The notes under the pieces were generated by a model. That model was not told where the DNA came from. It did no database searches and saw nothing but the letters and a program-made list of their open reading frames with translations. A program made the position numbers and the translations under genes. 64,000 bases of DNA, from the IMG/VR virus record IMGVR_UViG_3300028588_000021, positions 3,917 to 67,916 of that record; one strand, written 5' to 3'. Positions 4,687 through 63,659 of the stretch are shown here, piece by piece; position 1 is the first letter of the stretch, and every line of letters begins with the position of its first letter. Source of the DNA: a virus (taxonomy: Duplodnaviria; Caudoviricetes).

Positions 4687-4757
4687 GCCTTCTTAGCTTA
4701 AAAGTAAAGTCCCGGCTTGAAACCCCGGGGAACGTGGGGCGGTACCACGAGTAGGCA
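4687..4757 (+). tRNA. tRNA-Phe(GAA), atypical T-loop
   Basis: acceptor GCCTTCT/AGTAGGC; TT-GAA-AC; C31:C39 mismatch; T-loop GGCGGTA. Confidence 0.75.
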
Positions 4758-5335: not shown

Positions 5336-5408
5336 GCGATACGAACCAACATGGCTAAGGTACCTGGCTTCCACCCAGGGTAACGGAGTTCGATTCTCCG
5401 GTGTCGCT
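5336..5408 (+). tRNA. tRNA-Gly(TCC)
   Basis: cloverleaf; CT-TCC-AC; U73. Confidence 0.9.
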
Positions 5409-5499: not shown

Positions 5500-5567
5500 G
5501 GTCCTCGCTCTGGGAGCAAGCATCCTTTACACGGAAGCTCCGTACAGTTCGATCCTGTAGGGGACTA
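5500..5567 (+). tRNA. tRNA-Val(TAC), reduced D-arm
   Basis: TT-TAC-AC; D-arm GCTC-TGG-GAGC joined directly to the acceptor stem; A73. Confidence 0.7.
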
Positions 5568-38795: not shown

Positions 38796-40998
38796 TGGAG
38801 TAACTCTTCCTTCCCCGGCTGTCCTCTACTTCGTCAAGGCTGCCCATCTCGACCAACGTGCGAAGCATCTCCACGAAGTCTCCCTTGCGGAAGCCCTGTG
38901 CGGTAGACCACTTGAGTAGCTGCGCGTAGGTGAGCAGTCCACCCTTTTCCAGAATGTACTTCTCGATGTTCTGTAGGTCACGGGCAGCGGCAGACTCAGC
39001 CACGCCCTCGACAACCACGATCAGGTCCTCCAGCCACTGAAGGCTGAAGTAGATCGCATTGAGAACGTCTGTCATGTTAGCCATGATTCGCTTCTCCATC
39101 ATGGCAAACATGATGGCTGCTTTCATCGTGGCAAACGCCATGCGCTGCACGCTAGGCTTCAGCAGCTCAGCACGCGGGTGGTCAGCCACGTATTCTTCCA
39201 TGTCGATGGCGAACTTGTTCCAACGTACCCATGCATCGTCCTCGAAGAAGATCGGCATAGGCTCAGCGCGGTCAGGTACCGTCTTCTGCCAGAAGTTACG
39301 GACGTCGATGAGCTGCTTGACAATCGCCAACTTCTCGCGGTCCACGGTGCCCTTGATGAGGTTGCCCTGCTGCAAGAACTTCTGCTCCCTCGTGCGGGGC
39401 GGTGCCTCTCCTCGGAAGAAGATGTTACGTGGTCCCCAACCAGATGCGAAGTCTGAAATCTCAAGTTCATCCTGGATCTGTGACCGAATACCCATGAGAT
39501 ATGCCACGAAGTTCACCGGGGTGTCCTCTGTGCTCTTGGCCTGACGCAACCGGCCTCGTGCCCACCCGTCGTACAGCTCGTTCAGTGTCTCAAAGAAGCC
39601 AGCCAGGTAAGGTTTGTTCTTAATGTCACGAATTAGAGTCTGCGTCTCATCGCGGTCGTACAAAGATGACTGGTTGCCACGCTCAGAGAGTGCATCAAGC
39701 AAAGACTCAGGAGTGGTGTCGGAAGTCAAGATGTACTTCCAGTCACCCACCTGCACAGAGCGCATGATGTCTTTCATCAGCTTGCGCGTCGTGCTCTTGC
39801 GTGTGTCGGTTGTCTCACCCATGACCACCATGAACATACCCAAGCGCATCGGCCCGAACTTGGGCAATGCGATACCGTACTCACCCAGGATGCAGCCCAT
39901 GATGGCGAACGCTGAGGAGATGTGGTAGGCAGCGGGAGCGTCCGTCTTGGACTCACCCCACCGAGCGTAGACATCGACAAATGTCTCCGTCAACTGCTCG
40001 CGCTCCTCCTGCGTCAACAGGGTCAGCTCCATCTGTGCGATGGCAGCAGCATCGTTGGCGACCTTGGGTGTCACCTCGTCTGGTGCGGCACGCTCAAGGC
40101 GTGTACGAGGACGGTTAGCAGGGTCTGCTCCTGCCCGCTTGACCTCAGTCCACAGGTCTTCCTCGGGTCGGTTGTCTCGACGGTATTTATTGCACTCAGC
40201 GTACCAAGCTACCGCAAAGACCTCCTCAGCCGTGAACCCAGCTCGAAACATCTCAGACTCGAACAGGTAGAGCGAGTCTGACCAGTCCCCGTGGGGCTTG
40301 TCCTTGTACAGACTCATCAGGATTGGGTCGTGGGCCATACGCCGCAGCACATCGCTCTGCTTAGGCAGCTCGTCGCCTGTAGGCATAGCCTGGTCACCGG
40401 CAACCACCTTGTCGGGAATGTCTGCCTCGTTGTAGACCTCATGGAAGTCGTCCAGCGAGTAGACAGTGCCCGTGGTGTCCTCGGCGTAGACCGGGTAAGG
40501 CGGCTCGTGCTTGGTGTTTACGCTACCAGGCACACGCAGCAGCTTGGTCAGCATCCACCCAGAGGGGTCAGTGCCAGCCTGCTCGCCATTGATCTTCTGA
40601 GCGTGGGTCAGTGCGATGACCCGAGCGACAGAGCTGACCTCTTCAGGGCTGTACTCCTGGTCAAGGAACCAGTAGCTGTGCGTCTTGTCTTCCGACGTGC
40701 GGATAGACAAAGAGGGCTTCACAAGGAAGCCCTCAGGGTCGAACAGGTCAGTGTCTGAATAGACTACAGGTGTTGCCTTGACAACTTCACTCTTACGTCG
40801 GGGTACTGAGTAGAGCATTGGACTGAAGTACAGGTCTTCGTCGCTGCGCACACTGCAATACTTGACGATCTGATTCAGGTTGTCAGGGTACTTGTACGGC
40901 TTGTGTTGGGTTAGCTCTCGGTCGCTGTCGAGCGTAGAGATGAAGAGAAACCCTTCGGCAGAGCCGAAGATGGCTTCAAAGAATTCACGAGTTTCCAA
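38788..40998 (-). CDS. DNA primase/polymerase fused to a helicase-like (DUF3987-type) domain
   Basis: RepB-type primase motifs (YFSP, DTD, HSYW, LLRVPGSVNTK); P-loop-like GETTDTRKST. Confidence 0.8.
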   Translation of the reverse strand: METREFFEAIFGSAEGFLFISTLDSDRELTQHKPYKYPDNLNQIVKYCSVRSDEDLYFSPMLYSVPRRKSEVVKATPVVYSDTDLFDPEGFLVKPSLSIRTSEDKTHSYWFLDQEYSPEEVSSVARVIALTHAQKINGEQAGTDPSGWMLTKLLRVPGSVNTKHEPPYPVYAEDTTGTVYSLDDFHEVYNEADIPDKVVAGDQAMPTGDELPKQSDVLRRMAHDPILMSLYKDKPHGDWSDSLYLFESEMFRAGFTAEEVFAVAWYAECNKYRRDNRPEEDLWTEVKRAGADPANRPRTRLERAAPDEVTPKVANDAAAIAQMELTLLTQEEREQLTETFVDVYARWGESKTDAPAAYHISSAFAIMGCILGEYGIALPKFGPMRLGMFMVVMGETTDTRKSTTRKLMKDIMRSVQVGDWKYILTSDTTPESLLDALSERGNQSSLYDRDETQTLIRDIKNKPYLAGFFETLNELYDGWARGRLRQAKSTEDTPVNFVAYLMGIRSQIQDELEISDFASGWGPRNIFFRGEAPPRTREQKFLQQGNLIKGTVDREKLAIVKQLIDVRNFWQKTVPDRAEPMPIFFEDDAWVRWNKFAIDMEEYVADHPRAELLKPSVQRMAFATMKAAIMFAMMEKRIMANMTDVLNAIYFSLQWLEDLIVVVEGVAESAAARDLQNIEKYILEKGGLLTYAQLLKWSTAQGFRKGDFVEMLRTLVEMGSLDEVEDSRGRKSYSIA

Positions 40999-41046
40999 CT
41001 GATGGTGCCTCCTGTATCATATCGCATTGAACATTGGTGTCATATA

Positions 41047-41122
41047 TGGTCGGCTACCTGGGACTCGAACCCAGAGCATACGGACGTTTGAAATCCGGTG
41101 GTCTGCCATTGCCTAATAGCCG
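41047..41122 (-). tRNA. tRNA-Leu(CAA), short variable region, isolated from the cluster
   Basis: acceptor CGGCTAT/GTAGCCG; loop TT-CAA-AC; T-loop TTCGAGT; A73 and encoded CCA. Confidence 0.85.
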
Positions 41123-41126
41123 GGAG

Positions 41127-41230
41127 TGGGCTGAGTAGGAATCGAACCTACGCTCCCGCAATGCTGTGCCACGTTAGCGATGCATTGCTTTGGCCTGGGC
41201 GTCCCCAGGCAGCCGACCAGCGGCCAGCCC
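41127..41230 (-). ncRNA. 104-nt tRNA-like RNA
   Basis: acceptor GGGCTGG/TCAGCCC, A73, T-arm GTAGG-TTCGATT-CCTAC; no canonical anticodon arm. Confidence 0.6.
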
Positions 41231-41263
41231 ATGTGTGCGTTACAGTCGCACCCCTGTTGTTGC

Positions 41264-41776
41264 TTAGAGGAAGATACTAGAGTCCGTAGCGGCCTCTCGC
41301 TCCTCGTCACTCAGCAGGTCATCGATCTTGTCCTCGTCGTACGCGAACACGGTCTTGACGTTGTTGCGAATGCCGGTGATGTCGTTGTCGTCATCATCGA
41401 CAGTCTCGTAAGGCTCCTGAATGATCTTCAGGTTGACCTTCTCACCCACGAACTCGTCCGGGTCCGGGAACTCGAACTCGCCAGCAGGCGTGTCCTTCTT
41501 CGGGTAAGGCATGTCCAGCGCCTTCAGCAACGCAATGAGGCTGAACAGGGCGTTGGCCTTGAGCACGTACCACGCACGGAAGGTGCGCTTGGGGCCGACC
41601 GCCTCCGGGCCGGAGAGAATCTTGTAGTCGAGAACGTACATGTCGTTCCCGGCCTTGGACTTCGCCATCTTTGCCTCGTAGACGACGGCACCGTAGATGC
41701 CCTCAGCGACAGGCTTGATGGTGCTGCTCTGTGCGTCCTTGATTTCATCGGCGGTGAGGTTGAGCTTGATACCCAT
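41264..41776 (-). CDS. ssDNA-binding protein (DUF669-like)
   Basis: EGIYGAVVYEAKMAKSKAGNDM pattern; acidic C-terminus ending in Phe-Leu. Confidence 0.7.
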   Translation of the reverse strand: MGIKLNLTADEIKDAQSSTIKPVAEGIYGAVVYEAKMAKSKAGNDMYVLDYKILSGPEAVGPKRTFRAWYVLKANALFSLIALLKALDMPYPKKDTPAGEFEFPDPDEFVGEKVNLKIIQEPYETVDDDDNDITGIRNNVKTVFAYDEDKIDDLLSDEEREAATDSSIFL

Positions 41777-46811: not shown

Positions 46812-47009
46812 TTAGTAGTACGTCGGTGGCTGAGTGCCTACGACTAGTGTACCTTCTGAATCGGTGCTGCGGGACAAAAGCTGCTGAATTATCAGCAAGC
46901 TATCAGCAATGGATTGAAGAGCCTTGGTTTGTTTCTGTTCTGCTGTCTCCAACATCACATCGTCCGGCCCCATGTACCAGACAGGGTTAAGTCCTTCAGT
47001 GTAGGGCAT
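46812..47009 (-). CDS. hypothetical protein
   Basis: coupled to the RNA ligase stop. Confidence 0.55.
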   Translation of the reverse strand: MPYTEGLNPVWYMGPDDVMLETAEQKQTKALQSIADSLLIIQQLLSRSTDSEGTLVVGTQPPTYY

Positions 47010-48094
47010 CAGCGTGATCCCTTCGGCTCGATGGACCGCCAGATTGCAGTTTGAATGTCTCGCCCGTCCAGCAGGCTGAACATGTATCCCTGGTATTTGG
47101 GTTCTACGTACGCCTTCACCAGCCGTGCGAACAAAGCGCGGTCCACGACATCTTCATCGCCATCAATATCTTCGTACTGCTCAAGGATAGAGATGTAGCA
47201 GCCGTCAATCTCTCGCATCTCCAGAGCATACTCACGGTTCAGGTCGTTAGCAACACCCTCGGCCCACGAGTACAGCTCATCGGGCAGCTTGGACAGCATC
47301 TCCAGGTACTCGTTACGCCCTGTGCTAAGCACACGCCAGACAGACTTGCGGCTAAGCCCAGTGAAGATACGGTGCAGCTCGATGTAGTCCATCTGCTTGA
47401 CCTTGACGGCAGTGAAAGGATCAAGCCAGCACACCCAGCCCTCGGCGTTCTTGCGTTTGGTGTCTGCCCACGCCTCACGCAAGGTCTGATGTGCTTTGAC
47501 CGGACCCTCGCTCGGCGGGATGAAGTTACCGAGTTCGATGTTCACGGCTCCTAGCAGCGCCAGGTAATCCTCAGTTCCGTAGTCCACGACGATGCGGTTC
47601 TCCGGGTAGATGATTTCCACTAGCGGGGTGTAGCCGTCCTCCACCAGGTCCACCAAGGTATCAAACAACTCGGTGTTAGCATGGTTGGTCAACCAATCGC
47701 TAGCGTGCTGGGCCTGGTCGGAAGCAAAGCTGCCGCGTGTAGCGACCTCGAACATTCCACTGTACTCGTTGTAGTAGACAATGCCAAGCGAGCCATCATA
47801 CTTGTTGTCCACCCAGTACAGCATGGCATCCATGTCGATGCTGGGGGCCTCCTTCTGCCCGTAGTTGAAGAACTTAGCAAACGGCCTGGCGATAACCTCG
47901 TTTGTCGCAAGGTCAACGATCAAACCACGTGCCTGCAACGTCTCGGGCGTCCAAATGCTGTTGATCGCAGTGATGTCAGTGTAGTTGAAGATCGCCAGGT
48001 TCGGGTAGTGCGGGTGCTCTCGCATAGTGACCTCTTTACGGGCCACGTGATCGAGCAGTGCCGTCCAGTCGAGAATTTCAGTTACTAGTGTCAT
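47009..48094 (-). CDS. RNA ligase (T4 Rnl1-like)
   Basis: ARGL, RPFAKFFNY, KYDGS adenylation motif, EII, EGWV, KVK. Confidence 0.9.
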   Translation of the reverse strand: MTLVTEILDWTALLDHVARKEVTMREHPHYPNLAIFNYTDITAINSIWTPETLQARGLIVDLATNEVIARPFAKFFNYGQKEAPSIDMDAMLYWVDNKYDGSLGIVYYNEYSGMFEVATRGSFASDQAQHASDWLTNHANTELFDTLVDLVEDGYTPLVEIIYPENRIVVDYGTEDYLALLGAVNIELGNFIPPSEGPVKAHQTLREAWADTKRKNAEGWVCWLDPFTAVKVKQMDYIELHRIFTGLSRKSVWRVLSTGRNEYLEMLSKLPDELYSWAEGVANDLNREYALEMREIDGCYISILEQYEDIDGDEDVVDRALFARLVKAYVEPKYQGYMFSLLDGRDIQTAIWRSIEPKGSR

Positions 48095-48155
48095 TACGCC
48101 TCCTTTTTAAGCTCAAAAAATAAATCCTGATTTTTCCCGCATGGGCTTTTAAGCC

Positions 48156-49052
48156 CTAGAAGTTGCCGTCTGCGCACTGAAGTACTTTCAGCCCCTTGGC
48201 CCTCCACATGTCAACCACGCGGTTTCGGTCATCCAGGATGAAGTCTACATTGTACTTACCAGCAATGTGCTCCTCGAACAACTCGTTTTTGACCACATCG
48301 TCCTTGCGCTTGTCACCTTCGGGCCGCATGTACAGCTCATCGTAGTTAACGAAGTTCGCCGCTAGCCACTCCTCAGTTTCCACGCGGTAGCCACCATCAC
48401 GGCCCGACATGATAACCACACTAACATACGGCTCTTTCATAAGCGTGTAGGCATCTGCAATATCAGCAATCACATCATCCAGCGTATCCGTGTGGTACAG
48501 GGTTGGGTCGTAAGGACTGCGGCCCTGCATGTGCGCCAAGGTGCCGTCGATGTCAACCAGAATGGCGTGCGGCAAGCCCTCGACTTCTTTGTAAGGTGCA
48601 AACTTGACAGCAGCACCCTCGTCGAGCACAGGGGGCTCAGGAAGCTGGCCCTTCCTCACGAAACGGTCGAAGAAGCTCTTGATGACCTCTTCACCCACAG
48701 AGTCATCGAACCGGCCCGAGTCACGCGCCACAGCCGTCTCGTAGTCGATTTCGAAGTCCATGAAGCTGGCGAATGCGTTCTGCTCAGCCGCGAGCTTCAG
48801 CCACTCCTTCACGAAGCGTGCCGTCAGGTTGGTGTCGTCCACGATCACCGAGATGTCGTTGCGCAGCAGCTCCTTGACACGGCTGTGCTGGATCTTAGTG
48901 ACCAGCGGCTCGTTCTGCCCGTGCCTGACGCTCAGCTCCTTGCGCAGTTCGTCGCGGTTGACCCGCACGAAGTTGTAGTCCTTGGCGTACTGCTTGGCCC
49001 AAGTGGTCTTGCCACTGGCCGGAACCCCACGGGTCAGGATCAGTTCAGTCAT
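48156..49052 (-). CDS. polynucleotide kinase/3'-phosphatase (T4 PseT-like)
   Basis: GVPASGKTT P-loop, RDELR, DDTN; HAD motif DIDGT; DDRNRVVDMW. Confidence 0.92.
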   Translation of the reverse strand: MTELILTRGVPASGKTTWAKQYAKDYNFVRVNRDELRKELSVRHGQNEPLVTKIQHSRVKELLRNDISVIVDDTNLTARFVKEWLKLAAEQNAFASFMDFEIDYETAVARDSGRFDDSVGEEVIKSFFDRFVRKGQLPEPPVLDEGAAVKFAPYKEVEGLPHAILVDIDGTLAHMQGRSPYDPTLYHTDTLDDVIADIADAYTLMKEPYVSVVIMSGRDGGYRVETEEWLAANFVNYDELYMRPEGDKRKDDVVKNELFEEHIAGKYNVDFILDDRNRVVDMWRAKGLKVLQCADGNF

Positions 49053-49333
49053 ACTATCGTCTCCTCCGTTGTCGTTGTCGTCTTGATAATCACAATAGCA
49101 CGATCGGTCCACCGATAGCCATAGATTCCCTCGAAAAGCCGACCAAAAACATATTCAGTGGTCTTCCCCAGACGCTCTTGATACAAATTCTTGTAGCTCT
49201 TAATAGCAACAAGATCGAAGTCAGGCAACTCTCGGGGGTTGTTGTAACGCTTCTCTGGCTCGCTCCAATTTCCGTCTTTGTCAAGCCAGGAGTAGTCATG
49301 CTGAACCGCAATTTTTCGTGTAACTTCAATCAT
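49049..49333 (-). CDS. hypothetical protein
   Basis: AGGAGGAG RBS; AT-richer sequence. Confidence 0.55.
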   Translation of the reverse strand: MIEVTRKIAVQHDYSWLDKDGNWSEPEKRYNNPRELPDFDLVAIKSYKNLYQERLGKTTEYVFGRLFEGIYGYRWTDRAIVIIKTTTTTEETIV

Positions 49334-52884: not shown

Positions 52885-52924
52885 GACTGCCAGGGACTCG
52901 AACCCCGGTGTATGCCGTTCAGCC
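52885..52924 (-). ncRNA. mini-tRNA-like element 1
   Basis: GGCTG-aacggcataca-CCGGGG-TTCGAGT-CCCTGG-CAGTC-A. Confidence 0.55.
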
Positions 52925-59066: not shown

Positions 59067-59109
59067 GCCCCTGGCCGGAATCGAACCGGCCACTATGAAC
59101 CATTGAGGC
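59067..59109 (-). ncRNA. mini-tRNA-like element 2
   Basis: GCCTC-aatggttcatag-TGGCCGG-TTCGATT-CCGGCCA-GGGGC-A. Confidence 0.6.
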
Positions 59110-60486: not shown

Positions 60487-60892
60487 AGAACGTCGTCCCG
60501 TCCAGCTCGACAGCGGTGTAATCCATTTTGAGCGCTTCGCCCGCTTCGTCCCAATCAATGTGGTTGAAGGGCCACACAGCGTCGGTGACCTGGCTTCCGT
60601 AGAGGTCACCGGCCATCTCCTCGGCGTACTCGGCGAAGTAGTTTTCATTCACCAACGTCTCGCCATACTCCCAATCGGAGGTGCTGCACTCGTCCCAGAA
60701 ATCGGTAAGCATGGTGTGCTCCTCTTTGACCTCTTCCCATGCATCCCAGTGTTCCTCGCGCTCCTCGGCGTCCATCCCGCTATCGGGGTCGTTAGCCTCA
60801 TCGGCGTAGCTGCGAATGCTTTCCAACTCATCAATGCGTGCCTTGAGGTCGGAGGTATAGATAACGTTGTCGCTGAGGTCGAAGGTAGACAT
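60476..60892 (-). CDS. hypothetical acidic protein
   Basis: 138 aa; resembles widespread acidic phage early proteins. Confidence 0.7.
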   Translation of the reverse strand: MSTFDLSDNVIYTSDLKARIDELESIRSYADEANDPDSGMDAEEREEHWDAWEEVKEEHTMLTDFWDECSTSDWEYGETLVNENYFAEYAEEMAGDLYGSQVTDAVWPFNHIDWDEAGEALKMDYTAVELDGTTFYVR

Positions 60893-60936
60893 GTGATATG
60901 TTCCAATCTGTTTGGGTGAATGTGTTTGTTACAAGT

Positions 60937-60978
60937 GCCCCGCTCGGTACCTGACTCCGAGTGTATGCCTTTCGGGGC
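60937..60978 (-). ncRNA. mini-tRNA-like element 3 (diverged loop)
   Basis: GCCCCG-aaaggcataca-CTCGG-AGTCAGGTA-CCGAG-CGGGGC-A. Confidence 0.5.
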
Positions 60979-61750: not shown

Positions 61751-61793
61751 TGTCTTACTCCCTTGATTTGGTTTGTTGAGGTGTGTTACGAGT

Positions 61794-61836
61794 GCCCCGG
61801 TGGAGAATCGAACTCCACTGGCAAACCATTCGGGGC
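61794..61836 (-). ncRNA. mini-tRNA-like element 4
   Basis: GCCCCG-aatggtttgcca-GTGGAG-TTCGATT-CTCCAC-CGGGGC-A. Confidence 0.6.
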
Positions 61837-61843
61837 TGTGCTG

Positions 61844-62257
61844 CTAGTTGTTACTCATCGGGTCGTCGTTCAGCTTGAGGACGGCCCACCCTGCCGGTTC
61901 GTCGTCGTCCTCATCGTACGTTTCCACCGTGACCAGGACGTACACCCCCGGGTGTGCCACGATGTCCTCAGCGATGCGGCCCCACAGGGACTCCGAAGGG
62001 TGCATGATCGGGCCGCTGTAGCCGTACTGACCCGTGTAGCCTTGCAGTGCGCCCCACTCACTTGGCAGGTTGTCAAGCCAATAGGGGTCGTCATCGCCTA
62101 CGTAGACGGTTTCGGGGGCGAGTGGGCCTCCGCATCCGAAATACCCGCTTGCATCCACGATGTAGCCACCGGCGAGGGTACGGAACGGGCAACCCCACTC
62201 GATTGTGGCGTTCAATTCGGTCGGGTCAATGAGTTGGGGGGTCTGGGAAACGAACAT
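61844..62257 (-). CDS. hypothetical protein
   Basis: GYTGQYGYSGPIMHPSE motif seen in actinophage hypothetical proteins. Confidence 0.7.
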   Translation of the reverse strand: MFVSQTPQLIDPTELNATIEWGCPFRTLAGGYIVDASGYFGCGGPLAPETVYVGDDDPYWLDNLPSEWGALQGYTGQYGYSGPIMHPSESLWGRIAEDIVAHPGVYVLVTVETYDEDDDEPAGWAVLKLNDDPMSNN

Positions 62258-63392: not shown

Positions 63393-63659
63393 TGTGTCTT
63401 CCTTAGAGTGTAATCGTGAAGTGACCGGTACGGTCATCTGGGAGGGGGTTAGCTGGGGTGGACTGTTCGAGAACAGTCTTACAATCGATGGGCTGGTAGT
63501 CAAGGGTGAACATTATTCCTCATCCTTCTTAGTGCCGATGTCAAAGTGAATCAGCGTAGCCACGATTACGGCGAACATGAACATGCTTGCGATTTCTTGA
63601 GGGTACATGTGACCAGAGTGAGAATCGAACTCACTTACAACCATTCTGGCCTGTGTTGC

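Follow-up and report, generated by a model that had tools for sequence, protein, structure and literature searches.

The tRNA genes of phages are usually explained by codon supply or by the replacement of tRNAs that defence nucleases have cut. Non-decoding RNAs with the shape of a tRNA are also known as a general kind, which includes YrlA, viral tRNA-like structures and the stable RNAs of phage T4. YrlA RNAs, which are reportedly bacterial Y-RNA-like tRNA mimics, occur in some phages too; they have the ends of the RNA in the Ro-binding stem and a closed acceptor-like stem. Species 1 and 2 of phage T4 (rnaC and rnaD) are small, stable non-tRNA RNAs that are encoded beside tRNA genes and mature together with them. 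In the processing of tRNAs, RNase P, the 3'-end trimming machinery and the CCA-adding enzyme read the stack of acceptor stem and T arm, the elbow and the U-1/G+1 step.

Here we describe an RNA element of 104 nt that stands in tandem with a tRNA gene in an actinophage genome, and for which a literature search and Rfam returned no describing paper and no family. The DNA analysed (the window, 64,000 nt) makes up nearly all of a 67.9-kb virus record. It belongs to a small soil and leaf phage with Curtobacterium-type hosts, whose nearest named relative is Curtobacterium phage Yappy, and near-identical DNA is found in leaf-litter, phyllosphere and plant metagenomes. ARAGORN counts 18 tRNAs in this phage, and adjoining genes on the minus strand (47009-49112) encode an Rnl1-type RNA ligase (PF09511) and a PNKP kinase-phosphatase (PF25109, PF13671), a tRNA-repair pair that is also annotated in Yappy (genes 98 and 99) and that, together with the 18 tRNAs, fits a tRNA-centred conflict with the host. 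No gene for a CCA-adding enzyme was found in the window phage. Within its tRNA array, tRNA-shaped genes that ARAGORN did not call lie on the plus strand at 4687-4757, 5336-5408, 5500-5567 and 6308-6372; the first of these was called by Rfam, the last is a weak covariance-model match, and 5500-5567 is just 68 nt long, with a tiny D arm.

Locus and architecture of the 104-nt element

The features of the locus are the following, in the direction of transcription (RNA position i corresponds to window position 41231-i):

41266..41264, minus strand: stop codon of the gene for a DUF669 SSB-like protein, upstream of the element
41235..41251, minus strand: small hairpin GUGCG-ACUGUAA-CGCAC after the SSB-like stop codon, followed by the leader ACAU
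41127..41230, minus strand: the whole tRNA-shaped RNA, 104 nt (sequence, fold, pattern scan against shuffles)
41224..41230, minus strand: 5' strand of the acceptor stem, GGGCUGG, with U-1 preceding G+1
41212..41224, minus strand: D-like hairpin (G)CCG-CUGGU-CGG(C), with GG in the loop (fold)
41193..41210, minus strand: hairpin 2, GCCUGGG-GACG-CCCAGGC, 7 bp, in the position of the anticodon arm; GACG tetraloop at 41203..41200
between hairpins 2 and 3, minus strand: linker CAAA
41158..41188, minus strand: hairpin 3, GCAAUGC...GCAUUGC, 31 nt, interrupted, in the position of the variable arm
between hairpin 3 and the T arm, minus strand: linker GGGAGC
41135..41151, minus strand: canonical T arm GUAGG-UUCGAUU-CCUAC
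41127..41134, minus strand: 3' strand of the acceptor stem, UCAGCCC, and an unpaired, discriminator-like A (41127)
41123..41126, minus strand: spacer CUCC, 4 nt, to tRNA(CAA)
41047..41122, minus strand: tRNA(CAA) with encoded CCA and no long variable arm (ARAGORN; Rfam tRNA, 35.7 bits)
40998, minus strand: TTG start of a DUF3987 primase/helicase-type gene, downstream of the element

As in a canonical tRNA, the 7-bp acceptor stem (GGGCUGG/UCAGCCC, with a G.U at pair 7) is contiguous with a 5-bp T stem that carries the T-loop consensus. The fourth pair of the D-like hairpin (G7-C19) reuses the G of acceptor pair 7, so that the two pairs are mutually exclusive. Hairpin 3 is built from 7 bp, a 3x3 internal loop, 4 bp and an apical ACG loop (41174..41172). 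An unconstrained fold of the element returns the same architecture, at -51.4 kcal/mol and z = -3.1 relative to shuffles. A descriptor demanding a 5-bp stem with a UUCRANN loop on which a 7-bp stem closes directly matches the window 17 times, at its tRNAs, at the 104-nt element and at one or more further places, at least one of them possibly a chance match (61939..61793); the dinucleotide-shuffled window yields 0.15 matches on average, which makes the real window ~100-fold richer. The element is therefore genuine and no chance fold. To judge from its sequence, it is laid out as a class II tRNA, and decoding would be impossible. A 65-codon minus-strand ORF across the element was set aside because base pairs, not codons, are conserved.

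The sequence-only reading of this stretch had described the 7-bp acceptor stem, the unpaired A and the perfect T arm on the minus strand, the D-like hairpin GCCG-CTGGT-CGGC, the 7-bp hairpin with a 4-nt GACG loop in place of the anticodon arm, the interrupted hairpin GCAATG...CATTGC, an end 4 nt before tRNA(CAA) and a position between SSB and primase genes. All of these are found in the sequence and, where they concern pairing, in the fold, the flanking genes being those of the DUF669 and DUF3987 proteins; the fourth pair of the D-like hairpin exists with the shared G described above.

At gathering thresholds, Rfam matched only tRNAs in the window and left the element unmatched, so that none of YrlA, tmRNA and tRNA-Sec, the families that the sequence-only reading had brought into the comparison, is reached. 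In a permissive scan (E<=10) of 401 nt around the element, the best match is tRNA-Sec (RF01852), with 19.9 bits and E = 0.18 against a cut-off of 47; RF00005 (gathering threshold 29 bits) has no match across 41127-41230 even at this level, nor do tmRNA, YrlA and Y RNA in the 401 nt, and weak matches to plastid ycf2, mascRNA and snoRNA were judged to be chance. ARAGORN made no call on the element at normal thresholds, be it with default settings, intron settings or in tmRNA mode, and gave only inconsistent calls at an 80% threshold when hairpin 2/3 was taken for an intron-bearing anticodon arm. A canonical tRNA requires a 5-bp anticodon arm with a 7-nt loop, whereas the element has 7 bp and GACG. 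A tRNA-Sec is ruled out by the missing UCA loop and by a D-like stem of 3-4 bp with a 5-nt loop, where 6 bp and 4 nt are required. As for tmRNA, the RNA has 104 nt only, position 3 is a G-C pair, in agreement with the earlier remark that the G3.U70 pair and the tag ORF are lacking, and there is no Rfam or ARAGORN tmRNA match. The suggestion of a Y-RNA-like RNA finds no support: there is no YrlA or Y RNA match at E<=10, the topology is the reverse, and a search with the TROVE profile (PF05731), in which control profiles matched, extended the absence of a Ro/TROVE gene from the window to the complete 67.9-kb phage record.

The neighbouring tRNA(CAA) has an anticodon stem CGGAU/GUCCG with the loop UUCAAAC. 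A bacterial tRNA-Leu is expected to have a long variable arm; tRNA(CAA) lacks one in the window phage and in most relatives, and its imperfect D stem GGCA/GACC is conserved. Many unrelated IMG/VR phages have this D-arm motif in their tRNA arrays as well. Another motif, AAUGCGAUAYGAAACAGGAGG, is located in the stretch from tRNA(CAA) to the primase start (window 40998-41046, minus strand) and recurs with variation in most relatives read (L001, L005, L069, L071-L078), being well conserved in the window, Yappy and L005 and diverged in L069 and L078; a promoter-like site, ATGACA-16-TATGAT (41043..41016), overlaps it. Wherever it was read (about eight loci), the primase start is TTG, directly after a tRNA that reads UUG.

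Assemblies of three leaf-litter metatranscriptome runs contain contigs on the SSB-like gene and upstream of it and none on the element, tRNA(CAA) or the primase gene, an absence that is uninformative for the element, as assembled contigs cannot reveal small structured RNAs. Two of these contigs end at 41263 and 41258, where a contig from a DNA run goes on, which hints, weakly at best, at an mRNA end close to the SSB-like stop codon.

Copies in relatives and a variable slot

Relatives of the primase number about 100 in metagenome assemblies, and the gaps between SSB and primase genes were compared in ~20 of them and in phages Yappy, Nonagon and Amigo. In this sample of about 20 relatives, the module has three members, the window, Yappy and L069, the last being the one new member from 12 examined contigs of primase relatives:

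L069:1275-1372: module copy; primase 66% identical to that of the window
Curtobacterium phage Yappy, L001:4267-4362: module copy; primase 61% identical to that of the window

In both copies, an acceptor stem of 7 bp leads straight into a D-like hairpin whose 5-nt loop contains GG (CAUA-UCGGU-UAUG in L069, CGU-GUAGG-ACG in Yappy); two GACG-capped hairpins, a canonical T arm and one unpaired base complete the module. U-1/G+1 is common to all three RNAs, within the leader ACAU|G (window, L069) or UCAU|G (Yappy), and the spacer to tRNA(CAA) always has 4 nt (CUCC in the window, UCAU in L069 and UUCU in Yappy, the last counted in a 7-bp acceptor register). The base after the acceptor stem varies (A, U, C), as does the gap that separates hairpin 3 from the T arm, so that a shared aminoacylation identity or protein-docking geometry is doubtful.

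The element has diverged beyond the reach of sequence search: with blastn, the only match among 50,697 phage records was to the SSB-like coding part, in Yappy. A MAFFT alignment of four tRNA-like elements was unusable, and the alignment was therefore built by hand on the helices. In it, the acceptor, D-like, hairpin 2 and T stems comprise 23 pairs, each of them canonical in the three RNAs, and 17 show compensatory double changes; since the alignment was fitted to the structure, this count is descriptive and no test. With a covariance model built on the window copy only, the L069 copy is recovered over its full length (25.1 bits, E = 3e-4 in 8.4 kb). The Yappy copy was not recovered as a whole by the covariance models and would belong to the family by its place, layout, spacing and loops. 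The models (R1 and R2) recover L069 and otherwise mostly rank ordinary or odd tRNAs; as they also miss Yappy, they were used neither to define the family nor to search host genomes. When IMG/VR was scanned for the D-arm pattern conserved in the tRNA(CAA) family, many tRNAs and no further copy of the element were returned.

The lower hairpins of the three RNAs have seven apical loops, of which five read GACG, and the second loop of the window copy reads ACG. The stems beneath the GACG loops have no sequence in common, and this retention of the loops while the stems turn over indicates that the loops are under selection. GACG hairpins are not otherwise enriched in the genome; the three others lie inside genes and look like chance. 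By analogy with other RNAs, the two GACG/ACG loops could contact each other and clamp the lower domain, or dimerise the RNA.

The common theme among the relatives is a tRNA(CAA) immediately before the primase gene, preceded by a part that varies like a cassette; in all of them, the first tRNA or tRNA-like gene is preceded, at a short distance (2-5 nt where counted), by a hairpin or larger structure. In L071 and L072, close relatives of Yappy within a clade whose primases are 82-91% identical, the same terminator-like hairpin and tRNA(CAA) are present and exactly the ~100-nt module is missing. In L070, L075 and L076 a true long-arm tRNA-Leu(CAA) takes the slot instead. In L005 (the window's closest relative, 82%), L074 and L073 it holds an unrelated three-way-junction RNA, in which L005 and L074 differ by a compensatory change from A-U to G-C:

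L005:1327-1381, L074:180-236 and L073:1325-1384: three-way junction with the conserved motif GUUAAAUGGGUA...CCCA

The tRNA-like element of L010 lacks GACG loops. In Arthrobacter phage Amigo the slot is occupied as follows:

L004:2084-2160: tRNA-like gene of 77 nt, annotated as tRNA-Gly(ccc) and called 'tRNA-???' by ARAGORN

Its anticodon arm consists of 6 bp and a CCAA tetraloop, and a long-arm tRNA(GAC) adjoins it; this gene is probably a further tRNA-like one that does not decode, in the same slot between SSB and primase genes. The slot thus tolerates both the loss of the element and its replacement by unrelated structures, which makes the element dispensable; from these comparisons, we see in the slot a cassette of structured RNAs that evolves fast, and in the element an accessory module that it may carry.

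Other arrangements were seen before the primase gene. Further Y-shaped structures occur in the slot of L006, L030 and L198. In more distant loci (L067:1371-1462 and L025:1328-1437, primase 26-28% identical), tRNAs with canonical acceptor, D and T arms have a ~20-nt insertion in the anticodon loop that gives an anticodon stem of 9 bp, and ARAGORN in intron mode reads them as Leu(CAA) and Cys(GCA). An extra Cys-rich ORF, which by eye resembles an HNH endonuclease, lies between tRNA(CAA) and the primase gene at L198:840-1262, L199:~800-1200 and L033:1-412.

Junction elements and possible roles

The window phage also has smaller elements in which a closing stem of 6-7 bp sits directly on a 5-6-bp stem with a UUCGAKU loop, with a GG-containing segment on the 5' side. 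There are five of these mini-tRNA elements in the window, all on the same strand and at gene junctions:

52885-52924, 59067-59109, 60937-60978 and 61794-61836, minus strand: mini-tRNA elements of ~42 nt (sequence and fold)
63651..63610, minus strand: fifth mini-tRNA element, directly after a stop codon (UAAGCAACACA)

In those between 52885 and 61836, the stem is followed by A, by C and in most cases by NNGUAACA; the sequence of the fifth is GGCCAGA-AUGGUUGUAA-GUGAG-UUCGAUU-CUCAC-UCUGGUC-A. Yappy has a single comparable element in the same arm (record ~60841-60906, ~66-72 nt, tRNA-like), so that their number varies between relatives. The counterpart of the fifth element in the closest relative, G002 (L197), has a T arm, GUAGGUUCGAUUCCUAC, identical to that of the 104-nt element and is, like it, followed by ACUC. 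The 104-nt RNA has all the features of these elements: the closing stem stacked on the T arm, the UUCGAKU loop, the GG segment on the 5' side and, behind the stem, an A and then a C (in several elements ACUC); it also shares their strand and lies at a gene junction. It differs from them by three hairpins (~70 nt) in place of a 10-12-nt linker and by its GACG loops, which the mini elements lack. In view of the T arm shared with the G002 element, we regard the 104-nt RNA as the enlarged member of a family of tRNA top-half modules at gene junctions of this phage lineage.

This kinship bears on an explanation in which the element acts in cis, its top half serving as an RNase P and 3'-end processing signal after the SSB-like mRNA, with the RNA itself as a by-product. 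Such a role in punctuation would suit the acceptor/T-arm design shared by the five mini elements, by the one in Yappy and by the one in G002 with its identical T arm, as well as the conservation of shape in the top half only across the wider set of slot elements and the dispensability of the module in relatives. However, tRNA(CAA), 4 nt downstream, already supplies an RNase P site and the hairpin at 41251..41235 caps the upstream mRNA, so that the module adds nothing to punctuation here; moreover, 42 nt suffice in the mini elements, but an extra 60 nt are kept in three divergent phages. We therefore hold this explanation to be possible but unlikely. The retention of these 60 nt as perfect hairpins with conserved loops favours a trans-acting mimic both over punctuation and over a pseudogene, and we consider it probable, with some reserve, that the 104-nt RNA is a selected, processed, non-decoding tRNA mimic that acts through its shape. 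The idea of a non-decoding mimic, raised by the sequence-only reading, has accordingly been strengthened by the intact top half, the missing 7-nt anticodon loop and the compensatory changes in two divergent relatives.

The element has the features of an RNase P substrate in its sequence: an acceptor/T-arm coaxial stack of ~12 bp, U-1/G+1 and a predicted elbow, which the GG-containing D-like loop could form. It would be co-transcribed with the SSB-like gene and tRNA(CAA), and RNase P would cut at G41230 and, a second time, at the 5' end of tRNA(CAA), leaving a 4-nt trailer that would be trimmed, with CCA added by the host. The mature product would be a stable tRNA top half that is never paired with a codon and whose tRNA shape, together with the two conserved loops, would let it act in trans. 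The role that we rate as most plausible is the occupation of a factor that recognises the acceptor end or elbow of tRNAs, for example a tRNA-directed defence toxin.

In its most explicit form, this would be an anti-defence decoy, a CCA-tailed, anticodon-less class II body that soaks up toxins acting on the acceptor end, with its GACG/ACG loops kissing and with no part in translation, a scenario that in all its details we regard as a long shot. By analogy, candidate targets would be nucleotidyltransferases of the MenT/AbiEii type and pyrophosphokinases of the toxSAS/CapRel type, and the kissing loops might hold the lower arms in a geometry like that of tRNA-Ser or tRNA-Leu, or join two molecules. 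In selecting its tRNAs, the actinobacterial toxin MenT3 relies on the CCA end and the long variable arm, not on the anticodon (PMC11541572), and a decoy for a MenT3-like factor would be the most attractive specific reading.

That the element is a decaying, functionless class II tRNA gene, such as a tRNA-Leu or tRNA-Ser whose anticodon loop has been lost, seems improbable to us. The true long-arm tRNA-Leu(CAA) in the slot of L070, L075 and L076, the class II layout with tRNA-Sec as the best Rfam alignment and the rapid turnover of the slot all speak for such an origin; against it, mismatches would accumulate in a pseudogene, but every stem is intact, including the perfect 7-bp hairpin, the double changes at 17 of 23 pairs lie between otherwise unalignable copies, and the GACG tetraloop recurs five times. 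Most improbable of all is a chargeable non-decoding tRNA body, serving as a non-ribosomal aminoacyl carrier or as a sink for a synthetase (LeuRS, SerRS, AlaRS), which would suit the discriminator A, class II layout and elbow of the window copy and the fact that bacterial LeuRS and SerRS do not read the anticodon, but which is at odds with a discriminator that differs in each copy, a G3.U70 pair that is not shared (it is found in Yappy only, and there only in an 8-bp register), a variable-arm geometry that is not conserved and a neighbourhood of the element in which no aminoacyl-transferase or synthetase gene was noticed.

If the 104-nt RNA is indeed a selected non-decoding tRNA body, the tRNA shape alone would be useful to a phage, and the kinship with the mini-tRNA elements suggests that top halves serve the RNA metabolism of this phage lineage more widely. 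The system has practical advantages: with a 68-kb genome, a cultured relative (Yappy, host Curtobacterium flaccumfaciens) and natural variants with and without the module, its function can be tested by ordinary deletion and plating, and the repeated GACG loops provide a defined handle for mutagenesis.

Comparison with known RNAs

Among known RNAs, the class II tRNAs (Leu, Ser, bacterial Tyr; tRNA-Sec) share with the element the order of the helices (acceptor, D, anticodon-position, long variable-position and T), the canonical T loop, the GG-containing D-like loop, the 7-bp acceptor stem and the tandem arrangement with a tRNA; in contrast to them, its arm in the anticodon position has 7 bp and a 4-nt loop with no anticodon, and it has no U8/N9 linker. 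YrlA is likewise a non-decoding RNA with a tRNA-like T arm, a D arm and an acceptor-like stem, but the ends of the 104-nt RNA sit in the acceptor stem and not in a Ro-binding stem. The T4 rnaC and rnaD genes are, by description, small non-tRNA RNA genes beside a phage tRNA gene, as here, whereas T4 is unrelated to the window actinophage. In retroviral leaders, GACG tetraloops contribute to RNA-RNA contacts (PMC516450), and the gammaretroviral and related leaders resemble our RNAs in having two neighbouring capped hairpins per molecule (both GACG in L069 and Yappy, GACG and ACG in the window); the context is unrelated and the resemblance is a lead only (PMC516450). Against this background, what is new is the class II layout with GACG-capped arms, the setting in a small actinophage with a cultured relative and natural variants with and without the module, and the kinship of the 104-nt RNA with the mini-tRNA junction elements.
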